A DNA stretch of 64,000 nucleotides. Origin: Spirochaetia bacterium. Lineage in GTDB: Bacteria > Spirochaetota > Spirochaetia > UBA9216. The position numbers and the translations under genes were made by a program. This document shows, piece after piece, positions 13,433 through 24,217 of the stretch (its first letter is position 1; each line of letters opens with the position of its first letter). Below the pieces are notes generated by a model. That model did not search any database. It saw only the letters and a list, made by a program, of their open reading frames with translations, and was not told the origin of the DNA. Location of the stretch: the NCBI GenBank assembly GCA_965140585.1, contig OZ223268.1, forward strand, positions 133,221 to 197,220, in the 5' to 3' direction.

Positions 13433-15004
13433 TCAATCGGTAAAATAGGCGATTGCATTTTTGCCCGATTTTTTTACCCTGTACATTGCAGTATCAGCTT
13501 CATGAAGAATCTGTTCGAGATTTTCATGATTGCCGCCTTCAACAATACTGATTCCGATGCTTGCTCCAATATTTATCTCATGCCCTTCGATTATCAGTTT
13601 CTCATCAATCGCATTAAGAATTTTTTTTGTTACAACATCGCATTCTTCTTCACTGGAGACACGAGGAAGAAGTACTATAAATTCGTCACCTCCGTATCTG
13701 CCTACAGTGTCTGAACTGCGCAGAACAGCCTTCATTTTAAGACCAACAGTCTGAAGTAGTGAATCTCCTACATCATGGCCGAACTGATCATTGACACTTT
13801 TAAATCCGTCAAGATCAATGAAGCAGACAGCCATTTTTAATTTATACCGGTCAGCAAGCTCCAGCTGCTTCGTAATTCTGTCGTATATAAGATTACGGTT
13901 CGGCAAATCCGTCAAATTATCATATAGGGCGGCATGCTCCATTGATTTACGGTATTTATTCCTCTGTATTATTATCCTGGATATAAGCAGAGCCCCGACA
14001 ATATCAAGAAATAAAATAATTATTGCAAGAATGGTATACCGGTATTGAAAATCTTTGAGTCCCAGTCCGAATTCCTTAGCTGTTATATAGTTAATAAGAA
14101 ACCAGGAATTTTCTGAGTTATAAATAAAATCAAGCTCCTCATACGGGTTTATCTTTAAAGCTGAAACCAGAACCCTATTTTTATAAACCTGATAAAAATC
14201 ATTATTCTGCATATACTCCCAGACTTGAGGACATTCAATGCTGAAAGAAACGGCCTCCCGATCGGGAAACATGAAACCCCATTCTTTATCAGGGTCATCA
14301 CGATAAAGCCAGTCACCGTTTTCATTAGCCAGAAAAAAACTGCCCGGATTATTCAGGGTCAGGTTTTCAAAAATATCAATTAAATTATGCCCCAGGAAAT
14401 TCAGTACAACAGCGCCCTTCACTTCACCCTCATTATAGACAGGACTTCCTATCCGAATCATAGGCTTTAAAGGTTTTTCAATCCTTTCGTTCTCTACATT
14501 CAAATCAAACAGTGAGATGTAAACCTGGCCTTCATGAAGTTTAACCGTCTCTGAAAAATAATACCTGTTAGATTTATCCTGCATCTGTTCTTCTGAAACA
14601 AGTACAGGCTTTCCATCAACCAGATTAACACGAACAATTTCCATTCCGGTTTGATCAATATATCGAACCTGATCAAAAACTCTCTTATTTTCGCTGAAAT
14701 TAAGCAGATCCTGCTGCAGATCATTTTTGCCAAGACCTGTTTCAATCATGTTGTGCAGTGACGATAAACCTGCCAGGAATTTCACATCGTATACAAGTTC
14801 CCTATAATAATTTGAAACAATTTCAGATTGGGCCTGAAGCAATCGTTCAGAATCAAGACTTTGTGTGTTTATATGCTCTGATCTATGCGAAATGATGAAG
14901 ATCGTATACAGGCCGAAACTTAATATTATCACTGCTGAAAGTGTTTTGACTGCTATACTTCCTGACGCTAAAGCTTCTTTAAAAATCATTTTATATTTGT
15001 GCAT
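13433..15004 (-). CDS. Cache-domain sensor diguanylate cyclase
   Basis: TM-Cache (QVRYID.GMEIVRVN, QDKSNRYYF, KPMIRIG)-TM-GGDEF (RYGGDEF). Confidence 0.9.
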   Translation of the reverse strand: MHKYKMIFKEALASGSIAVKTLSAVIILSFGLYTIFIISHRSEHINTQSLDSERLLQAQSEIVSNYYRELVYDVKFLAGLSSLHNMIETGLGKNDLQQDLLNFSENKRVFDQVRYIDQTGMEIVRVNLVDGKPVLVSEEQMQDKSNRYYFSETVKLHEGQVYISLFDLNVENERIEKPLKPMIRIGSPVYNEGEVKGAVVLNFLGHNLIDIFENLTLNNPGSFFLANENGDWLYRDDPDKEWGFMFPDREAVSFSIECPQVWEYMQNNDFYQVYKNRVLVSALKINPYEELDFIYNSENSWFLINYITAKEFGLGLKDFQYRYTILAIIILFLDIVGALLISRIIIQRNKYRKSMEHAALYDNLTDLPNRNLIYDRITKQLELADRYKLKMAVCFIDLDGFKSVNDQFGHDVGDSLLQTVGLKMKAVLRSSDTVGRYGGDEFIVLLPRVSSEEECDVVTKKILNAIDEKLIIEGHEINIGASIGISIVEGGNHENLEQILHEADTAMYRVKKSGKNAIAYFTD

Positions 15005-15116: not shown

Positions 15117-16286
15117 CTAATTAAGCGACAACAGAACACCCGCAGCAATTGCAGAGCCTATAACTCCGGCTACGTTTGGTCCCATTGCGTTCATCAGCAG
15201 AAAGTTGCCCGGGTCTTCTTTCTGACCGACCTTCTGTACTACTCGTGCAGCCATAGGTACGGCAGATACTCCTGCAGCTCCAATCATCGGATTGATCTTT
15301 CCGCCGCTTATCTTGCTCATCAGCTTTCCAAGCATTACTCCGCCGCCGGTTCCTACTCCGAATGCTATACATCCAAGCACAATAATGAAGATTGTCTCAA
15401 ATGTAAGGAAGTGGTCGGCTGACATCTTCGAACCTACTGATATTCCAAGGAATATGGTAACTATGTTTATAAGCTCGTTCTGGGCTGTCTTTGAAAGCCT
15501 GTCTACAACTCCGCACTCCTTGAACAGGTTTCCAAGCATTAGCATTCCGATTAGAGGTGCTGATGCCGGAATAAGCAGGGCTGTAACTATTGTTGTGATT
15601 ATCGGGAAAAGAATCTTTGTCCGCTTTGATACGGGTTTCGGATCTTCCATCCTGATAAGTCTTTCCTTCTTGGTTGTGAGAGCCTTGATAATAGGCGGCT
15701 GTATAATCGGTACAAGCGCCATATACGTATAGGCTGCTACTGCAATAGGTCCAAGCAGATGCGGTGCAAGCTTCGATGTAAGATATATCGCTGTAGGACC
15801 GTCAGCTCCTCCGATTATTGCGATGGAAGAGGCCTCTGCGAAGTTGAAGCCCAGATCATGCGCCGCAAGAAAGGGTATTGCTCCAAGCGCCTTTGCTCCA
15901 AGCAGGGTTATAAATATACCAAGCTGTGCAGCGGCTCCAAGAAGAAAGGTCTGCGGCTTGCCCAGTAGCGGTCCAAAGTCCGTCATCGCACCAATTCCCA
16001 TGAAGATAATCGGCGGAAACAGTCCAAGCTGAACACCCTGGTAAAAATAGTATATAAGTCCGCCGGCCTGGTCTCCGATTGGGCCTTCCAGAAGCCCTGT
16101 AAGCGGAAGGTTTACCAGTATTGCTCCAAACCCTATCGGGATAAGCAGCAGCGGCTCATAACCCTTTGCTATTGCAAGGTAAACAAGCAGACAGCCGATT
16201 GCAATCATCACAATGTTCTGCCAGGTGATTGCTGTGAAGGCGGTGCTGCTTAGAAATCTCAATATTAGATCTACGAAATTCACCAA
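15117..16286 (-). CDS. mmdB: Na+-translocating decarboxylase beta subunit (OadB/MmdB family)
   Basis: [63 protein letters not shown]. Confidence 0.93.
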
Positions 16287-16295
16287 ATCCCTCCG

Positions 16296-16781
16296 TTAGC
16301 CGATGTCTACAAGCGGCTGTCCTTCGGTTACGTTTGTACCCGGAGTTACATGGATGGCTGCTACTGTACCGGCATTGCTTGCAAATACTTCAATGTCCAT
16401 CTTCATTGCTTCCATTATCAGTAGAAGATCTCCCTTGGCTACACTTGCACCCTGGGCTACCTTGATTTCCTTGATTGTTCCTGTGATTGCAGCCTTCTCA
16501 GTTCCGGCTCCGGCTGCTACAGGGGCGGCGGCTGGTGCAGGCGCGGCAGCTGCGGGAGCGGGGGCGGCAGCTGCCGGTGCTGGTGCGGCCGGTGCAGCAG
16601 CTGCAGCAGGGGCTGCAGGCGCAGCGGCCGGTGCAGCAGGAGCTGCTGTTGCTCCTGCAGGGGTTGCAAGGCTTACAAGGTAACTATCGCCTTCATGCTC
16701 AATTGTAAGGACATTTCCGTTTCTTGTTACGTTTATGTCGTAAAGTGTTCCTTCATATTCAAACTTAATATTCTTGCTCAT
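16296..16781 (-). CDS. mmdC: Biotin carboxyl carrier subunit of Na+-pumping decarboxylase
   Basis: Ala/Pro linker and EAMKM biotinylation motif. Confidence 0.9.
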   Translation of the reverse strand: MSKNIKFEYEGTLYDINVTRNGNVLTIEHEGDSYLVSLATPAGATAAPAAPAAAPAAPAAAAAPAAPAPAAAAPAPAAAAPAPAAAPVAAGAGTEKAAITGTIKEIKVAQGASVAKGDLLLIMEAMKMDIEVFASNAGTVAAIHVTPGTNVTEGQPLVDIG

Positions 16782-16786
16782 AACTC

Positions 16787-17173
16787 TTATACTCCTGGTG
16801 CTTTTCTTGTAATTTTATTGCTAGCGACCCACGGGTCATACTTTGCTGCTCCCGCTGAGCTCCATCCTGAAGCCTTCGGGGCATTCTGCTCATCTTCCTC
16901 TGCTGCCAGAAACGCTGATACCGCAGCCGAAAGCCATTTGGCGTTGTCGGCCATTGTTGCTGTAGCTGCTGCAACTATTACAGGCAGGGGCAGACCGCCG
17001 CTCTTCTTTGCTGAAGAAGCCCTGGCAGATTTCGGCGCTGTGCTTTTGGCTGTATCACCGTCTGCGAATTTCCTTATCAGAACCATCAGCAGACTCAGAA
17101 GGACTAACAGCGTAAATACTATCAGTATTCCAAGTATGGATGTCATAACACTGTAAATAAATTCTTCCTGCAT
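16787..17173 (-). CDS. mmdD: OadG/MmdD-family anchoring subunit
   Basis: Single N-terminal TM (GILIVFTLLVLL), AAVSA and C-terminal W..AG motifs, position in operon. Confidence 0.75.
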   Translation of the reverse strand: MQEEFIYSVMTSILGILIVFTLLVLLSLLMVLIRKFADGDTAKSTAPKSARASSAKKSGGLPLPVIVAAATATMADNAKWLSAAVSAFLAAEEDEQNAPKASGWSSAGAAKYDPWVASNKITRKAPGV

Positions 17174-17188
17174 AAAACTCTCCGCCTC

Positions 17189-18739
17189 CTACAGTGGTAT
17201 ATTGCCGTGTTTCTTGGCAGGTCTGTCTTCACGCTTTTTGATGTTGATCTCAAGCGCTCTGATGAGTTCTGCACGGGTGTATTCGGGATCGATTATATCG
17301 TCTACAAGACCAAGTCCTGCGGCTACGTAGGGGTTCATGAACTCTGTCTGGAACTCTGCTATCTTTTCCTGTCTCTTTGCTTCAGGATCCGATGCTGAAC
17401 TGATGTCCTTTCGAAAGATGATGTTTGCTGCACCCTCTGCTCCCATTACTGCTATTTCTGCTGTCGGGTAGGCAAGGACTCTGTCGTATCCAAGTGACTT
17501 GGAGGACATTGCTATCATTGAACCGCCGTAGGATTTTCTCATAATCAGCGAAATCTTGGGCACTGTTGCCTCTGCTATTGCGTAGAGGATCTTTGCTCCG
17601 TGCCTGATGATTCCACCGTGCTCCTGGGCAACGCCTGGAAGGTAGCCGGGAACGTCAACGAGTGTGATTACCGGAATATTGAAAGCATCGCAGAAGCGAA
17701 TGAATCTTGCTCCCTTGTCTGATGAGTTGATATCAAGTGATGCAGCCATGAACTTCGGCTGGTTGGCAAAGATTCCTACAGTGCGTCCGTTTAGCTTTGC
17801 GAAACCTACTACTACGCTTTTGGCGAAGTCTTCCTGTACTTCAAGAAATGAACCTGCGTCGAAGGCGCTTCCGATTATATCGCGTACATCGTAGGGCTTT
17901 CTGGGCTCTTCGGGGATGATCGACATTATTTCGGGGGTGGTTCTCTCAAGTGAATCTGTACATGCGCTTACTGGCGGCTGCTCTGTGTTATTTGACGGCA
18001 GGTAGTCCATAAGCCTTCTGATGAAATCAAAACATTCCTGCTCGGATGAAAAACGGAAGTGGGCGACTCCGCTTTTTGCACAGTGAGCTGATGCTCCACC
18101 GAGGTCTTCGTGGCTGATAACCTCACCGGTTACTGTCTTGATTACATCCGGACCGGTGATGTACATGTGACTTGAACCGTCTACCATGAATATGAAGTCG
18201 GTTATGGCCGGTGAGTAAACTGCACCTCCGGCACAGGGACCGAGTATTACTGAAAACTGAGGAATTACACCTGATGAGAGTGTGTTGTTCCGAAAGATTT
18301 TGGCGTATCCGTTTAGTGAGAGTATTCCCTCCTGGATTCTTGCTCCGCCTGAATCGTTGACCTGGATAAACGGTGAGCCGTTTTTGAGTGCAAGACTTTG
18401 GGCCTCTGCAATCTTTTCGGCATGCATTTCTCCAAGTGAACCGCCGAGAACTGTAAAATCCTGAGCTGACAGGAATACCTGCTTGCCGTTCATCTTGCCT
18501 GTTCCGGTTACTACTCCGTCGCCGGCAAACTTGTTTTTATCCATTCCGAACTGGCTTGTTCTTGTCTGGATGTATGCCTGGCTTTCAACGAAACTTCCCT
18601 CATCCAGAAGTCCGGTGATCCTTTCTCTGGCGGTAAATTTCCCTTTATCATGCTGGGCTTTGATTCTGGCGTCGCCGCCGCCCTTCTGCATTTTTGCTCT
18701 GAAGTCTTTAAACTCCTGAAGCCGCTCGTTGTTATTCAT
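17189..18739 (-). CDS. mmdA: Acyl-CoA carboxyltransferase, (methyl)malonyl-CoA decarboxylase alpha subunit
   Basis: GDGVVTG, QDFTVLGGSLG, DSGGARIQEG, GPCAGGAVYSPA, DVPGYLPG, KKHGNIPL. Confidence 0.88.
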   Translation of the reverse strand: MNNNERLQEFKDFRAKMQKGGGDARIKAQHDKGKFTARERITGLLDEGSFVESQAYIQTRTSQFGMDKNKFAGDGVVTGTGKMNGKQVFLSAQDFTVLGGSLGEMHAEKIAEAQSLALKNGSPFIQVNDSGGARIQEGILSLNGYAKIFRNNTLSSGVIPQFSVILGPCAGGAVYSPAITDFIFMVDGSSHMYITGPDVIKTVTGEVISHEDLGGASAHCAKSGVAHFRFSSEQECFDFIRRLMDYLPSNNTEQPPVSACTDSLERTTPEIMSIIPEEPRKPYDVRDIIGSAFDAGSFLEVQEDFAKSVVVGFAKLNGRTVGIFANQPKFMAASLDINSSDKGARFIRFCDAFNIPVITLVDVPGYLPGVAQEHGGIIRHGAKILYAIAEATVPKISLIMRKSYGGSMIAMSSKSLGYDRVLAYPTAEIAVMGAEGAANIIFRKDISSASDPEAKRQEKIAEFQTEFMNPYVAAGLGLVDDIIDPEYTRAELIRALEINIKKREDRPAKKHGNIPL

Positions 18740-18856: not shown

Positions 18857-19618
18857 CTAGAAAATGGCGTTAACTATCAGATATCCTACTGAAGGACAAA
18901 GAAGTGTTCCAAGTCCTGTATAGAAAGTTGCAGTCATTGCACCGTAGGGAACAAGCTTGATATCAGTAGCCGCAAGTCCGCCTGCAACACCACTGGTTGT
19001 TCCGATAATTCCGCCGTATACCATTGCTGTAGTCGGGTTATCAAGACCGATCTTCTTGGCAATAAGCGGGGTCATGATCATCGTCAGTACAGACTTAACA
19101 ACACCTGCCGCAACAGACAGGGCTACAACCGACGAGCTTACGCCTAGGGCATCACCTGTTACCGGTCCTACAATAAAAGTAACTGTACCTGCACCGATTG
19201 TTGTTAGTTCTTTGGGGTCAACAAAACCCAGTATACGGGCAATTATAACTCCGACAACGAATGAAAAAATAACACCGATGAAAAGAGCTACAACACCTGC
19301 AAGCCCTGCTTTCTTGAGATTCTCCATCTTAACACCATATGCTGTTGATACAATGGTGTAGTCTCTGAGGGCACTTCCTCCAAGTATGAGAAAACCTGCA
19401 AAAAGAGGCAGATCAGCAAGACCTTTTTTTCCGCCGGTGAATTTACCAGCAACATATGCAAGAATAAGGGCAAGTATGATTGCAAAAGCAGATCCCATCT
19501 TTCCCTGTTTGATCATTTTTGCTACATAGTAAGCAAGAAGCATCGCAAGAGCGACAAAACCGAAAGCGAGGACAAGGTGATCACGTCCCATGATACTGTT
19601 CATTATTTTTGCAATCAT
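18857..19618 (-). CDS. madM: Malonate transporter subunit MadM
   Basis: GSAFAI, TGGKKGLAD, GGSALRDYTIVST, GAGTVTFIVGPVTG, GTTSGVAGGLAATD.KLVPYGAMTATFYTGLG. Confidence 0.92.
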   Translation of the reverse strand: MIAKIMNSIMGRDHLVLAFGFVALAMLLAYYVAKMIKQGKMGSAFAIILALILAYVAGKFTGGKKGLADLPLFAGFLILGGSALRDYTIVSTAYGVKMENLKKAGLAGVVALFIGVIFSFVVGVIIARILGFVDPKELTTIGAGTVTFIVGPVTGDALGVSSSVVALSVAAGVVKSVLTMIMTPLIAKKIGLDNPTTAMVYGGIIGTTSGVAGGLAATDIKLVPYGAMTATFYTGLGTLLCPSVGYLIVNAIF

Positions 19619-19992
19619 ACTTCTTCTCCTTTATCTTTACCAAGCTTGGCTACTAATGGTACAAGAAACAGTGAAGCTATAGTTGCAATGCCTCCGGCCA
19701 GAAATGCAACCGCACCGCCGTCAACTGCAGCTACAACATTCTGGGATGCTGCCATAGCAACAACAACCGGAATGTAGATAGAACTCAGAAAAAGTATTCC
19801 GTTTTCAGTTTTTGCACTGAAACCGCCCTTTTTTGATTTTTGAACTCTTGCAGTAACAATAACCAGAAGAAGCATTGCTATACCTACACCGCCGACATTA
19901 CCCCCGATGCCGATTACCGCACCAAGAATTCTGCCGATGAAATTTCCGACAAAGTAACAGGCTGCTACTATTCCAAGGCCGTATATTTCCAT
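19615..19992 (-). CDS. madL: Malonate transporter subunit MadL
   Basis: MEIYG, NVGGVGIAMLLL, YIPVVVAMAASQNVVAA; overlaps madM start. Confidence 0.92.
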   Translation of the reverse strand: MEIYGLGIVAACYFVGNFIGRILGAVIGIGGNVGGVGIAMLLLVIVTARVQKSKKGGFSAKTENGILFLSSIYIPVVVAMAASQNVVAAVDGGAVAFLAGGIATIASLFLVPLVAKLGKDKGEEV

Positions 19993-20031: not shown

Positions 20032-21255
20032 TTATTTTTTGTCGAAGACAACTCCGCTGTTCAGCAGTTCTTCAACTTTTTCTTTTGAATATCCGAGTTC
20101 ATTCTGCAGATATTCAATTGTGTGCTCCCCAAGTCCGGGAGCCGGTGTTCTGACTGTACCGGGAGTTTCCGTCATTTTAAACGGAGATCCGGCCATAGTT
20201 ACTTTACCAACTCCGGGCTGTTCAACATCAACTATCATTTCGCGGTAAAGCAGGTTCGGGTCTTTTACAACCTTATCAATTGTGTTCAATGGTGAATACG
20301 GCAGGCCGTTTTCATCAAGAAGCTTGATCCATTCTTCGGATGTCTTCTTTTTCATTTCAACATCCAGAATTCTGACCAGTTCATCTCGGTTCTGTGTTCT
20401 GAGAGGATTAGTTTTGAAAAGTTCATGATCAGTCAGATCTTCTCTTTCAATAAGTGTACAGAATTTCTTCCAGAGAGAATCATTACCGATAGGTGTTATA
20501 ACCCAGCTGCCGTCACTTGTTTCAAATGCCTGAAACGGAGTTATGGTCGGGTGAGCACTTCCGAGAGGTACGGGAATTTCACCTTTGGCAGTGTATCTGA
20601 CAATTGCATTCTCAAGAATGTACACGAGACCATCTACCATAGAAATATCTATATGCTGTCCTTCGCCGGTTCGGTTTTTATGCTGCAGAGCTGCAAGAAT
20701 GCCGATCGCACCCTGATGTCCTGCAACTACATCACCTACAGACGAGCCTACGCGTACCGGAGCTCCGCCGAGGGGGCCTGTGATACTCATCAAACCGCTG
20801 AATCCCTGTGCAACCATGTCGTATGCCGGACGGGTTGCATACTCGGGAAGAGCATCATGTCCGAATCCGCAGATTGAGCAATAAATAATTCCGGGATTTA
20901 TTTTTTTTAATTCTTCATATGAGAAACCAAGTTTTCTCATGGTTGTCGGACGGTAGTTTTCAACTACGATATCCGCATCCTTAATCATGTCTGTCAGTAG
21001 AGCCTTACCTTCATCTTTTTTAAGGTCAACACAAATACTCTTTTTATTTCTGTTGATACTGATGAAATATCCGCTCTGCTTTCCGTTGCCGTCCTGTTCA
21101 TCAAGGAAGGGTCCGAATGCCCTTGAATCATCACCAATAGGGGGTTCAACTTTTACAACTTCAGCCCCCATATCTGCCAGAATCATCGTGCAGAACGGTG
21201 CAGCAAGTACATGACTAAGATCGACTATTTTAATTCCTTCCAATGCCTTTTTCAT
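20032..21255 (-). CDS. Family III (CaiB/BaiF) CoA-transferase, candidate malonate CoA-transferase
   Basis: DLSHVLAAPFC, NRNKKS, VENYRP, SVGD catalytic Asp, APGLGEHT; first gene upstream of madLM. Confidence 0.9.
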   Translation of the reverse strand: MKKALEGIKIVDLSHVLAAPFCTMILADMGAEVVKVEPPIGDDSRAFGPFLDEQDGNGKQSGYFISINRNKKSICVDLKKDEGKALLTDMIKDADIVVENYRPTTMRKLGFSYEELKKINPGIIYCSICGFGHDALPEYATRPAYDMVAQGFSGLMSITGPLGGAPVRVGSSVGDVVAGHQGAIGILAALQHKNRTGEGQHIDISMVDGLVYILENAIVRYTAKGEIPVPLGSAHPTITPFQAFETSDGSWVITPIGNDSLWKKFCTLIEREDLTDHELFKTNPLRTQNRDELVRILDVEMKKKTSEEWIKLLDENGLPYSPLNTIDKVVKDPNLLYREMIVDVEQPGVGKVTMAGSPFKMTETPGTVRTPAPGLGEHTIEYLQNELGYSKEKVEELLNSGVVFDKK

Positions 21256-21376
21256 AAAGGCCTCCTGTGATTTTTGTTTTCACAAAATCACTTGATCACT
21301 AATAAATTGAATTAAACACACTCTTTCACAATGTTATTTTCTTGATACCTCCAGGGGCTCTCTTTTCTTTATGAGC

Positions 21377-21411
21377 AAAAAAAAAGAGAAGTATTCTGAC
21401 ACTACTTCTCT
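21377..21411 (-). terminator. Leader intrinsic terminator between hutP and the CoA-transferase (attenuator)
   Basis: Sense AGAGAAGTA-GTGTCAGAA-TACTTCTCT followed by 8 more T; two UAG triplets overlap its 5' arm. Confidence 0.8.
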
Positions 21412-21480
21412 AATACACGCGTTAATAAAATTTCACTACAGGGACTGAACACTAATACACACTAAATTTTTTCAGTCCTG
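21402..21480 (-). promoter_or_regulatory. Putative HutP-binding RNA element (UAG repeats plus upstream hairpin)
   Basis: Five UAG at 21462, 21452, 21436, 21410, 21402 (four as UAGUG); repeated GUGUAUUAG; hairpin CAGGACTGAA/TTCAGTCCCTG with two UAG in its loop. Confidence 0.6.
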
Positions 21481-21498
21481 TTTATACACAAATAAAAA

Positions 21499-21921
21499 TT
21501 ATTTTAAATGCATAACCCCAAGCGCACACCGCTCATGGTTTGTTATTGGATAGAAGGCGGAATCACCGTAAATCGCAACGGCAACCCATTCCTCATTTGT
21601 TACAATGCCCACCTTAAGTTTCAGGCTGGCCTCTGCCGGAACACTGCTGATAACACCGTTAAGCGCTTCAAGAGCAGCATGAAGAACAGCATGAACCTGC
21701 GTTCCGTTTTTTTTGATCAATCCATTCTGAAGCGAACAACCGACGATTGATTTTACAAAACTCTTCTTGATATCGGAGGTCAGACCGGTAATAAAAGTCA
21801 CCGCAAGTTTTTCCTTTCCGATAGTGTTATTGACTTCAGCCTTAATCTGGCGCTCTTCTTCTTCATCAGACATAGCAGCAAGAAGTGCCATTTTTCCAAT
21901 ACGATCTGTATTCAGCTTCAT
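21499..21921 (-). CDS. hutP: HutP-family RNA-binding antiterminator
   Basis: RIGKMALL, HAVLHAALEALNGV, EWVAVAIYG, HERCALGVMHL parallel B. subtilis HutP (RIGRLSVL, HALYHATMEALHGV, DWIAVSLYG, HETFGVGINHI); three metal-binding His kept. Confidence 0.88.
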   Translation of the reverse strand: MKLNTDRIGKMALLAAMSDEEEERQIKAEVNNTIGKEKLAVTFITGLTSDIKKSFVKSIVGCSLQNGLIKKNGTQVHAVLHAALEALNGVISSVPAEASLKLKVGIVTNEEWVAVAIYGDSAFYPITNHERCALGVMHLK

Positions 21922-21929
21922 GTTTAGTC

Positions 21930-21959
21930 ATACTACACTCGGAAATGCACAATTGTCAA
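21930..21959 (-). promoter_or_regulatory. Sigma-70-type promoter of hutP, probably leaderless transcript
   Basis: TTGACA-18 bp-TAGTAT, then 8 nt to ATG; no SD. Confidence 0.55.
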
Positions 21960-22027
21960 TAAAAAAACTAAAGCTATCGGGATTTTTTTATCTATATATT
22001 CTGGTTTAAATTGTTGATTTTAACTTT

Positions 22028-24217
22028 TCAGGGTTGAAATCGACCTGGAATCCTAATACGAAAAACAGTCCCCTGCCCCGGTTCCGAATCGACTGCAATA
22101 TATCCATCGAGTGTATCAATAATATTTTTCACAATTGCAAGACCAAGCCCCATTCCGCGATGTATTTTAGTATAAATATTTTCAAGTTGCTGGAAAGGCT
22201 GAAAAATAAGCGGAAGATCCTCCTTCTTAATTCCGGGCCCTTCATCCGCTATTTCAAGAATCAGCTCATCAGCCGATTCTATTATGCTGCAGGTAATCTT
22301 TCCATTCTCTGAATATTTTATTGCATTTGTAATAAGGTTGTTTACTATCTGAGCAATACGGGTTTCATCACCGTAGAAAAAACCTGATTTATATTTTTTG
22401 CAAGCCGACAGGTGAAGATCCTTTTTTTCCAGAGAATCACTGAATATTTCAGAAGCAAGCATACCGATATTATTCAGTTTGAAAACCTGTTTACTGATAG
22501 AAATTTTACCAATGCTGAACTGGGTAAAATTCAAAAGATCCTCAATTATTGTTTTTAGATTATCGGTAGAAACAAGGGCAAGATTGTACCACTCTTGTTC
22601 TTCTGTATTAAAAGAAACTCCTGCCAGAAGCCTTAGCATGCCGTAGACTCCGTTAAGCGGAGTCCGCAGTTCATGACTGATATTTGCAAGAAAATCATTT
22701 TTTACCCGAAGTGCTGTTTCAGCCTTGATTCTTGCGTGTTCTATCTGTTCTGAAATTTTGATTTTTTCAGTTACATCATGTATGATTGCATAAAGATATT
22801 CATGGCTGCCGGCATTCAGACGCCCGCTGAATAACTCTATATGCCGGGTATCTCTTTTTGCAAGCTTGATCCTCATTGTTTTGCCTGATAATTCATCAAA
22901 CTTAAAAAAACCTTCTTCAATATTTTCTTCATCGGCAAGCAGATTGTAAAGTGAGAGATTTTTCAGTGCATTTTCAGGATAACCAAGATAATCCACAGCA
23001 GCCTGATTCAAATCAATTATTCTGCTTGTAACCGGTTCGAATAAAATAATGACTGATGTGTTATCATAAAAAAGGCTTCTGTATTTTAATTCACTTAAAC
23101 GAAGTGCAGATTCAGCCTTTTTCCTGATATTAATATTTATAAGTGAAAACAGAAGTAAAACTGCCATTATACTGAAAATGCTCACCGAACTCAGCACCAG
23201 AGCCTTATTTTCCCTGAGAAAACTGTATGGTCTGTTGATGATTTCAGAATCTTCCGGAAGCTTCCTCAAACTGATTCCAAAGCGTTTCAGTTCCTGATAA
23301 TCAAATATGTAGTGATTATCAGCATCACTCCGGATAGGAATTGAAGCCGGAGATGCACCATCAAGTATTTTTAGAGCAGTTTCTGCGGCACTGATTGCCT
23401 GCTCATAGTGACTAATCACCCTTCCTCCGAAAACACCATCACCGAAACCGTGATACCATAGATGAAAAAGCGGTATTTTAAGATTCTCATAAATTATCTT
23501 CAAACTCTCATTAAAAAGAAGATTATTTCCTTCACTGTCCTGATAGGCAGAAAGCAGAAGTAAACTAGTATCCCGTCCTAAACCGGAGAGAATTGCTGCA
23601 AATTCCTGCCATGTATAATCTTTAAGAGATATTGTTCTGAACTCATATGAAGGAAATTGGTTTTGAAGCTCATTAAAAGCCCTTAAATCAGCAGCTCCGC
23701 TGGTTGTTGCATCGGAAATGGCCGTAATTGTTTCAGTCTGGGGAAAAAGAGAAATCATCAATTCTATAGTATCTTTCATCGATACGGCTTCAATCAGCCC
23801 TGTTACCATCGGGTCATTATTATAACTCAGAGCTTTCTTAATATCATTGACCCCGAAAAAAACTATCGGAACATCGTTAAAAAACTCATTCCGCATACTC
23901 ATACATAAATCAAGCGCATTATCATCTGCAGTTATTACCAAATCATATTCAGGAACATGCTGAAACTTGTAGATAAAAAATTCCCTTCTAAGCTTTATTA
24001 CCTCATCAGTATTAAACCGTTTTGAATCCAGAAATTCCATATCCAGAAGAACATGTTCTTCATCAAGCACTGAACGCAATCCGTCAATCTGATGATTGAA
24101 AGTCGGAAACGAAGGGTTATATGAGCTGATAAATAAAATTCTTTTAAAATGATCATGTGTATAGGCAGGTAGACCAGTAACCAGCATAATCAGAATCAGG
24201 ACACACTTACGGAACAT
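22028..24217 (-). CDS. Sensor histidine kinase (ABC substrate-binding-like periplasmic domain, PAS, HisKA, HATPase)
   Basis: ISSYNP...EFLDSKRF, FLANISHELRTPL, NLITNAIKY, DEGPGI, GMGLGL. Confidence 0.9.
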   Translation of the reverse strand: MFRKCVLILIMLVTGLPAYTHDHFKRILFISSYNPSFPTFNHQIDGLRSVLDEEHVLLDMEFLDSKRFNTDEVIKLRREFFIYKFQHVPEYDLVITADDNALDLCMSMRNEFFNDVPIVFFGVNDIKKALSYNNDPMVTGLIEAVSMKDTIELMISLFPQTETITAISDATTSGAADLRAFNELQNQFPSYEFRTISLKDYTWQEFAAILSGLGRDTSLLLLSAYQDSEGNNLLFNESLKIIYENLKIPLFHLWYHGFGDGVFGGRVISHYEQAISAAETALKILDGASPASIPIRSDADNHYIFDYQELKRFGISLRKLPEDSEIINRPYSFLRENKALVLSSVSIFSIMAVLLLFSLININIRKKAESALRLSELKYRSLFYDNTSVIILFEPVTSRIIDLNQAAVDYLGYPENALKNLSLYNLLADEENIEEGFFKFDELSGKTMRIKLAKRDTRHIELFSGRLNAGSHEYLYAIIHDVTEKIKISEQIEHARIKAETALRVKNDFLANISHELRTPLNGVYGMLRLLAGVSFNTEEQEWYNLALVSTDNLKTIIEDLLNFTQFSIGKISISKQVFKLNNIGMLASEIFSDSLEKKDLHLSACKKYKSGFFYGDETRIAQIVNNLITNAIKYSENGKITCSIIESADELILEIADEGPGIKKEDLPLIFQPFQQLENIYTKIHRGMGLGLAIVKNIIDTLDGYIAVDSEPGQGTVFRIRIPGRFQP

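Follow-up and report, generated by a model that had tools for sequence, protein, structure and literature searches.

The window analyzed here is a 64,000-nucleotide (nt) stretch of Spirochaetia DNA (GenBank assembly GCA_965140585.1, contig OZ223268.1, positions 133,221 to 197,220) from a metagenome-assembled genome (MAG) of 4.85 Mb that is 98.5% complete. Our subject is a minus-strand open reading frame (ORF) in this window, of 140 codons plus a stop, which encodes a HutP-like protein, together with the RNA and the genes that follow it. Downstream on the same strand there are, in order, a 243-nt leader, a gene for a family III coenzyme A (CoA) transferase, madL, madM and the genes for a carboxyltransferase, a gamma-like subunit, a biotin carrier and a beta pump subunit (Table 1). 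The best explanation of the locus as a whole, and one that we consider probable although well short of certain, is that the HutP-like protein belongs to a MadY subfamily of RNA-binding antiterminators and controls the malonate-catabolic operon downstream of it.

A HutP-family protein outside the hut operons

The protein matches the Pfam family HutP (PF09021) over the whole profile (positions 1-128 of 128, E 3.1e-31, 108.7 bits with a cut-off of 25), and a profile search of the whole genome returned its gene as the sole PF09021 gene. Its sequence match to the solved HutP proteins of B. subtilis and Geobacillus is weak (HMMER E ~3e-5, with 1vea and 1wmq among the chains matched). Structure prediction, one of the checks proposed in a first-pass annotation of this DNA, agreed with the family assignment: the AlphaFold model, built on 29 homologues, has a predicted local distance difference test (pLDDT) score of 89.9, and the top ten Foldseek matches to it in the PDB are all HutP structures (template modeling score 0.65-0.72, 22-29% identity). 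As modeled, the protein has the alpha/beta fold of HutP.

We paired its residues with those of B. subtilis HutP by a HMMER alignment and by a profile-profile alignment (probability 98.9%), which agree on the six pairs given next, and numbered the B. subtilis residues by counting along the 148-residue chain 1vea, a count that reproduces the usual numbering. In this pairing H77, H81, E85, H129, E130 and H138 correspond to H73, H77, E81, H138, E139 and H147 of B. subtilis. The claim of the first-pass annotation that this is a HutP homologue with the HxxxH and C-terminal HE motifs retained is therefore borne out, and the changed strings it had quoted are real, as GTQVHAVLH, KLKVGI and GDSAFYPITNHE are present in the translation and the B. 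subtilis counterparts are present in PDB chains 1vea and 1wmq. All three histidines at the metal-ligand positions of B. subtilis HutP (H73, H77 and H138) are kept, and H77, H81 and H129 may well bind a metal in the window protein too. The roles of individual B. subtilis residues in contacts with metal, L-histidine and RNA were reportedly described by Kumarevel et al. in 2004 and 2005.

For comparison we assembled a canonical set of 80 hutP loci, all from Bacillota, in which the downstream ORF is a histidase (HutH, Lyase_aromatic) in 74 of the 79 loci that have one and HutH is detectable in 76 of 80. Ten residues (Y69, H73, H77, R88, R98, T99, E137, H138, E139 and H147) are each present in 80 of the 80 hut-linked proteins. 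Five of these are replaced or deleted in the window protein: Y69 is T or a gap, R88 is S92, E137 is N128, and R98/T99 fall in a four-residue deletion (profile-profile alignment) or pair with L102/K103 (HMMER). The protein also fails the NCBIfam HutP equivalog NF002838, with 40.6 bits relative to a cut-off of 155, and neither the urocanase and histidase families (PF01175, PF00221) nor a tblastn search with HutH found a match in the 98.5%-complete genome.

Relatives of the protein were located by using the subfamily alignment to scan genomes, one for each species, which gave 54 genome loci (including a copy of the window at 99% identity), and by taking the best 80 of 283 relatives in metagenomes. 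HutH gave no hit in any of these 54 genome or 80 metagenome loci, versus 76 of 80 in the canonical set. A phylogeny had also been proposed as a check, and in a careful maximum-likelihood tree the window protein does not group with the hut-linked HutPs; the branch parting five canonical representatives from 53 relatives has 100/100 support. The residue changes relative to hut-linked HutPs are well beyond chance, and the protein is not a hut regulator; the name under which databases list these proteins is "hut operon positive regulatory protein".

The leader RNA and its GUG repeats

An intrinsic terminator stands between the regulator gene and the structural genes, and it is overlapped by a presumed binding site, which we call site B, consisting of three G(U/A)G units that run from just before the terminator stem, through its 5′ arm and into the loop. 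Upstream of site B lies a hairpin with imperfect repeats (site A), and a similar loop-borne repeat hairpin is also present in loci L064 and L082. A third cluster, site C, has its second and third units within an A/U-rich hairpin that ends just before the Shine-Dalgarno sequence AGGAGG (21261-21266) and is kept in L012, L003, L064 and L082. At the other end of the hutP-like gene, 8 nt separate the end of the -10-like element of a promoter match from the ATG, and we see no Shine-Dalgarno sequence there (window 21919-21959, minus strand), so that the hutP-like mRNA may be nearly leaderless. No Rfam family matches positions 21150-22100, and a scan that was for consensus matches only found no promoter-like site on this strand between the terminator and the CoA-transferase gene.

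Are such repeats to be expected in any stretch of this genome? In the strict form GTG-N5-G[TA]G-N5-GTG, the pattern has four matches on both strands of the genome (9.70 Mb), two of which are sites B and C, 119 nt apart on the coding strand. The pattern is some ten-fold rarer across the whole genome than base composition predicts (4 seen versus 41.7 expected). Both strands of the 54 loci (1.60 Mb) together hold 17 strict matches, all of which are on the hutP strand; 12 of them follow a hutP-like gene at a distance of no more than 500 nt and two are just upstream of one. A relaxed form of the pattern is nine-fold enriched in leaders (0.57 per kb versus 0.064 per kb elsewhere) and is present in 26 of the 32 loci in which the hutP-like gene is upstream of malonate genes; by an automatic criterion, nine of these 32 have it overlapping a hairpin that resembles a terminator and has a U tract. 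We chose ten modules, each from a different locus and together covering five phyla; every one of them folds as a terminator whose 5′ arm contains repeat units, and their stem sequences differ. The layout with two sites, B and C, 105-119 nt apart recurs in nine leaders of the CoA-transferase type. Across 50 distinct sites the units give the consensus (A)GUG(A/U), 72 of 100 spacings have the 8-nt period, and GC-rich relatives have CGUG units without the AG. UAGUG or UAG was also considered as the repeat unit and was dropped, since the GC-rich relatives keep GUG and not UAG.

The first-pass annotation had named no RNA target for the protein, and the GUG triplets over the terminator are an addition to it.

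Table 1. Features of the hutP-like gene, its leader and the downstream operon (window coordinates)
Feature	Coordinates	Strand	Evidence
hutP-like gene, MadY-type HutP-family putative RNA-binding regulator	21499..21921	-	ORF, Pfam HutP 108.7 bits, HutP fold (modeled)
Sigma-70-like promoter match, TTGACA-18-TAGTAT	21930..21959	-	Consensus scan, 10/12 matches; consensus match only
Site A: upstream hairpin, imperfect GUG/UAGUG repeats, 13 nt before site B	21434..21480	-	Fold -11.1 kcal/mol, z -3.1
Site B: GUG-N5-GAG-N5-GUG, 8-nt period	21400..21418	-	Strict pattern match; kept in L012, L003, L064, L082
Intrinsic terminator: 9-bp stem 21411-21403/21393-21385, 9-nt loop, U8 tract 21384-21377	21377..21411	-	Fold -11.8 kcal/mol, z -2.4
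Two-unit repeat GUGAAAGAGUG between terminator and site C	21319..21329	-	Conserved as GUGAAAnAGUGAA in L003, L064, L082
Site C: GUG-N5-GUG-N5-GUG, 8-nt period	21281..21299	-	Strict pattern match
Second hairpin, 8-10 bp, A/U-rich, holds site C units 2 and 3	21268..21291	-	Fold -9.4 kcal/mol, z -2.65
Family III CoA-transferase, candidate acetyl-CoA:malonate CoA-transferase	20032..21255	-	Pfam CoA_transf_3 427.7 bits
madL, Na+/malonate symporter	19615..19992	-	NCBIfam equivalog passed
madM, Na+/malonate symporter	18857..19618	-	NCBIfam equivalog passed
Na+-translocating biotin decarboxylase, whole	15117..18739	-	Pfam and NCBIfam
Carboxyltransferase subunit	17189..18739	-	mmdA subfamily 781.7 bits, under 998.8 cut-off
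Gamma-like subunit	16787..17173	-	Decarboxylase part
Biotin carrier	16296..16781	-	Decarboxylase part
Beta pump subunit	15117..16286	-	Na_pump_decarbB 520.9 bits, over 190.6 cut-off

The malonate operon and the neighbors of the relatives

The predicted symporter subunits both exceed the cut-offs of the NCBIfam malonate-transporter equivalogs (MadL 127.4 versus 113.45 bits, MadM 307.8 versus 236.3 bits); the CoA-transferase scores under every NCBIfam equivalog cut-off. On the simplest reading of the operon, malonate is taken up, converted to malonyl-CoA by CoA transfer and then decarboxylated by the Na+-translocating biotin enzyme, with MadLM and the homologous loci pointing to malonate as the substrate of the enzymes. 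This route is the biochemically known pathway of Sporomusa malonica. Malonomonas rubra and S. malonica grow by malonate decarboxylation, and MadLM is a symporter (PMC8085960). In S. malonica the hutP-like gene and its terminator are directly followed by just one gene, which encodes a homologue of the CoA-transferase (L060:9404-10678, 51% identity), and for this reason we regard the CoA-transferase as a candidate for the unassigned malonate CoA-transferase gene. Two further observations concern genes in or near these operons. A Cache-domain diguanylate cyclase is encoded after the decarboxylase genes (window 13433-15004, minus strand) and a GGDEF-EAL protein after the CoA-transferase in S. malonica (L060:10811-12799), which may be coincidence or a link to cyclic diguanylate. 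A malonate operon of Caldisericota (L016:12071-13786) has GatC-like and amidase genes between madM and the carboxyltransferase gene, which might feed malonamate or malonamide into the pathway.

The family is a small one: of 1.84 billion representatives searched, 93 clusters reach E ≤ 1e-3. When the 54 genome loci were sorted by their neighbors using a tblastn tally, 41 proved to be malonate-linked. Twenty-nine of these have a Mad-type malonate decarboxylase cluster, which is based on an acyl carrier protein (ACP) and pumps Na+, and the hutP-like gene is directly upstream of mdcB in 20, after madL-madM in seven and inside the cluster, between madB and mdcA, in two. The other 12, which include S. 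malonica, have the gene directly upstream of a family III CoA-transferase 47-98% identical to that of the window; MadLM is visible in three of them, the contig ends too soon in four and there is room but no MadLM in five. The malonate-linked loci are from six phyla (Spirochaetota, Thermodesulfobacteriota, Caldisericota, Planctomycetota, Pseudomonadota and Bacillota) and their hosts include M. rubra, S. malonica and Rhodobacter capsulatus (strain SB1003), in which the annotation of the plasmid pRCB133 places a hutP-like gene right before mdcB-madB-...-madL. Proteins that are 55-59% identical to that of the window serve both the ACP-based and the CoA-based malonate pathways. In the remaining genome loci the gene is upstream of AllH/FdrA/AllG-type genes (five loci), upstream of a V-type ATPase operon in Bacteroidota (three), or in another context or on too short a contig (five).

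The metagenome loci agree for the closest relatives. The 40 closest of the best 80 (at least 44% identity) comprise 20 malonate-linked loci, eight of the AllH type, four in other contexts with room and eight that are too short, and the 40 more distant ones (38-43% identity) include one malonate-linked locus. Eight loci sampled from the remaining 39 distant ones are all beside DUF1385; thyX is present as well in six of the eight, and in most of them the gene upstream encodes an NMT1_3 binding protein.

The suggestion of the first-pass annotation that the protein defines a dicarboxylate-sensing HutP subfamily thus survives in part. A HutP subfamily outside the hut operons is indeed linked to malonate, with malonate genes beside it in 41 of 54 genome loci and in 20 of the 40 closest metagenome ones, but the three motif changes cited as its mark are not malonate-specific: they are the same or nearly the same in the paralogs beside AllH/FdrA/AllG, V-type ATPase and rpmE-thyX genes, which retain the histidines too, and define the whole non-hut branch. 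Other positions follow the neighbors more closely. While H77, H81, N128, H129, E130 and H138 are each found in 40 of 40 malonate-linked relatives, and the columns of Y69 and R88 have neither Y nor R in any of the 40, position 101 is K or R in 32 of 40 malonate-linked proteins from genomes and in 20 of 21 from metagenomes, S in 13 of 13 AllH-type proteins and G both in 38 of 39 rpmE-thyX-type proteins and in the hut type. Position 57 is K or R in malonate-linked proteins versus P in the AllH type, and position 131 is R versus K, respectively.

In Caldisericota and relatives (L004-L008 and L049-L052, e.g., L050:9007-9420), HutP-like paralogs of 46-48% identity abut AllH/FdrA/AllG-type, cyclase and xanthine-dehydrogenase-type genes and have neither leader nor GUG triplets. 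One Caldisericota MAG contains two paralogs, L016 before a CoA-transferase/MadLM operon and L050 before AllH/FdrA/AllG genes, which is consistent with divergence of the effector after duplication. A nested clade in Bacteroidaceae and Segatella (L018-L020, e.g., L020:9001-9420) precedes the V-type ATPase operon and has AAGUGUA/UAGUG repeats of 8-nt period both upstream and downstream of the hutP-like gene. A locus of Spirochaetota (L013:9421-10485) has two tandem hutP-like genes, then at least eight UAGUGU/AAGUGU-type repeats with a run of N inside, and then mdcB. An N-terminally extended branch of ~182 amino acids and 38-43% identity (L104-L143, e.g., L104:2360-2908), whose sampled genes mostly stand between one for an NMT1_3 binding protein and rpmE-thyX-DUF1385, keeps the histidines; its position 128 is H and its position 101 is G. 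In Klebsiella pneumoniae a HutP-family gene (L010:7974-8405) follows madL-madM of a mad-type cluster and overlaps a divergent LysR gene; E. coli genomes searched with this gene gave no match.

Probable signal, proposed mechanism and known systems

We hold with considerable confidence that the HutP-like protein is a regulator of the malonate operon at the level of RNA. How might it work? In the mechanism we propose, transcription would start at the promoter before the hutP-like gene, pass through the gene into the leader and normally stop at the terminator. The effector-activated protein, by homology probably a hexamer with two three-fold RNA-binding faces, would bind the three G(U/A)G units of site B at their 8-nt spacing, and since this site covers the 5′ arm and the loop of the terminator, the hairpin could not form and RNA polymerase would read into the CoA-transferase, madLM and decarboxylase genes. 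Site C, beside the ribosome-binding site, might be bound by the second face or might affect translation or stability. The effector would most likely be malonate, perhaps held with a divalent metal on the retained His77, His81 and His129′. RNA binding, hexamer formation, antitermination and malonate as the ligand are in each case what we infer.

The ACP-based and CoA-based pathways have unrelated activation chemistry and the only things common to both are malonate, MadLM and the Na+-pump module; that relatives of the protein serve both points to malonate as the signal, and we lean slightly towards malonate as the direct effector. In Bacillus HutP, L-histidine and Mg2+ sit together at the monomer-monomer interface, according to a review (PMC12591593). 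A comparable arrangement in which a metal bridges protein and malonate by chelation is a tentative proposal that we would not yet favor.

The alternative that fares best retains the same protein-RNA antitermination and changes only the effector, which could be some other signal common to the regulated genes, for example a thioester of CoA or ACP, acetate, the Na+ status or the metal ion alone. We give it an appreciable, although clearly minor, share of the probability. The nested Bacteroidota clade precedes V-type ATPase operons with similar AGUG repeats, and V-type ATPases, like MadB, OAD-beta and MadLM, belong to ion energetics; the pocket motifs are common to non-malonate paralogs, and the Klebsiella form is without the metal site. 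Conversely, that clade is three near-identical rows and so counts as a single event, no activated intermediate is common to the two pathways whereas malonate is their common substrate, and MadL and MadM pass the malonate-transporter cut-offs. Substrate induction is also usual for catabolic operons, and MdcR and MdcY are described as regulators of malonate operons (PMC5534430).

A second alternative is that the hairpin merely ends a monocistronic hutP-like transcript and that the malonate genes have a promoter of their own, with the protein acting elsewhere, or on translation or stability via site C. It is compatible with the position of site C next to the ribosome-binding site in a hairpin that has no U tract, with the AllH-type loci that have no leader at all, and with the seven loci in which the hutP-like gene is after madM, far from any operon leader. 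We nevertheless think it improbable, because the consensus scan, the only one made, found no promoter-like site on this strand between the terminator and the CoA-transferase gene, and because the repeat overlaps the 5′ arm in all ten folded modules despite the differing stems, which is not expected of a plain gene-end terminator. That the protein is an ordinary histidine-responsive HutP with malonate genes beside it by chance, as its Pfam family, its fold, the three shared histidines and its database name might suggest, is very improbable in view of the replacement of all five of Y69, R88, R98, T99 and E137, the failed equivalog, a genome without hutH and hutU, a repeat of GUG triplets at an 8-nt period in place of the NAG triplets with 4-nt spacers described for B. 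subtilis (PMC2425495) and the fully supported branch that sets the hut-type proteins apart.

Malonate-dependent antitermination itself has to be weighed with a number of observations that count against it. Thirteen of the 54 genome loci (the five AllH/FdrA/AllG, three V-type ATPase and five other or too short) are not malonate-linked, and there is a large branch at ~40% identity beside rpmE-thyX-DUF1385. These paralogs from other contexts have nearly the same pocket motifs, so that the scaffold evidently serves other signals and the motifs do not prove specificity for malonate; K101, the basic residue that best marks the clade, is replaced by Ala in the malonate-linked Negativicutes. The HutP-like protein of the Klebsiella mad cluster is without all three histidines, and metal-bridged malonate therefore cannot be universal. 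The counts overstate the number of independent events because many loci are close relatives (nine are from Rhodobacter) and some metagenome contigs duplicate MAG loci. Concerning the RNA, six of the 32 upstream-type loci, including M. rubra, are without a three-unit relaxed site (two-unit versions are seen by eye), and most alphaproteobacterial leaders have the repeat and no clear U-tract terminator. In the window, the fold z-score of the entire leader is just -1.68, and a simple terminator scan of 21000-22300, with a loop limit of 8 nt, reported none; it missed the terminator because the loop of the latter is 9 nt.

It is feasible, although on balance we stop just short of asserting it, that these findings extend well beyond one operon: MadY-type HutPs would be ligand-gated RNA-binding antiterminators of several phyla in which malonate replaces L-histidine as a metal-bridged effector and the RNA code has changed from NAG at 7 nt to GUG at 8 nt, and the wider non-hut branch of PF09021 would be a general riboregulator platform for sensing small molecules, with positions such as 57, 101 and 131 among the few that determine specificity.

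HutP has so far been treated as a curiosity of one Bacillus operon, and a 2025 review, in its table and section 27, lists HutP for Bacillus hut operons only (PMC12591593). Our literature search, to which subscription journals were outside, found neither a paper linking HutP-family proteins to malonate nor one on MadY with malonate decarboxylase. If our reading is correct, the HutP family would gain, through a malonate-linked branch that spans six phyla, a second class of effector and a second RNA code, anaerobic Na+-pumping malonate fermentation would have its first regulator, MadY would have a function, and there would be a candidate gene for malonate CoA-transferase. The idea is testable in R. 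capsulatus, S. malonica and M. rubra, which are cultured and partly genetically tractable, and a compact RNA switch that responds to malonate could be derived from it for the engineering of malonyl-CoA.

One of the closest known systems is MadY of M. rubra (AAC45396.1), the partial first ORF of the mad cluster deposited in 1997, which is a 56%-identity homologue encoded directly upstream of madG(mdcB)-madB-madA. It differs in being deposited as a 97-residue fragment and in serving a decarboxylase of the ACP type, that of the window being of the CoA-transferase type. Berg et al. are said to have given MadY no function in their 1997 description.

Another is HutP of B. subtilis with the hutP-hutH terminator (PDB 1VEA, 1WMQ, 1WPV, 4H4L; Geobacillus 4OK9), which has the same Pfam family, the same fold and the same three histidines. 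The loci are alike in plan, with a regulator gene, then a leader in which short-repeat triplets overlap a terminator, then catabolic genes, as described for the hut operon (PMC2425495, PMC12591593). They differ in that the window protein is 22-29% identical to B. subtilis HutP, fails the equivalog and has five hut-invariant residues replaced, and in that MadY-type proteins accompany malonate genes in six phyla and Bacillus HutP accompanies hut genes. The RNA differs as well: the repeat is (A)GUG(A/U) with an 8-nt period here versus NAG with 4-nt spacers, in two three-motif clusters flanking the terminator stem, in B. subtilis (PMC2425495), and the triplet sites of malonate leaders are 105-119 nt apart versus a linker of 12-20 nt in Bacillus hut (PMC2425495, PMC12591593).

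Among regulators of malonate catabolic operons, MdcR (LysR type, of Klebsiella) and MdcY (of Acinetobacter) have the same task (PMC5534430), but they bind DNA and act at initiation, while we propose that the HutP-like protein binds RNA and exerts its effect later, at a terminator. TRAP, a comparison drawn in PMC2425495, is likewise activated by a ligand and, as a ring, recognizes trinucleotide repeats spaced evenly along a leader; its fold is unrelated, however, and it promotes termination and reads 11 GAG/UAG repeats.

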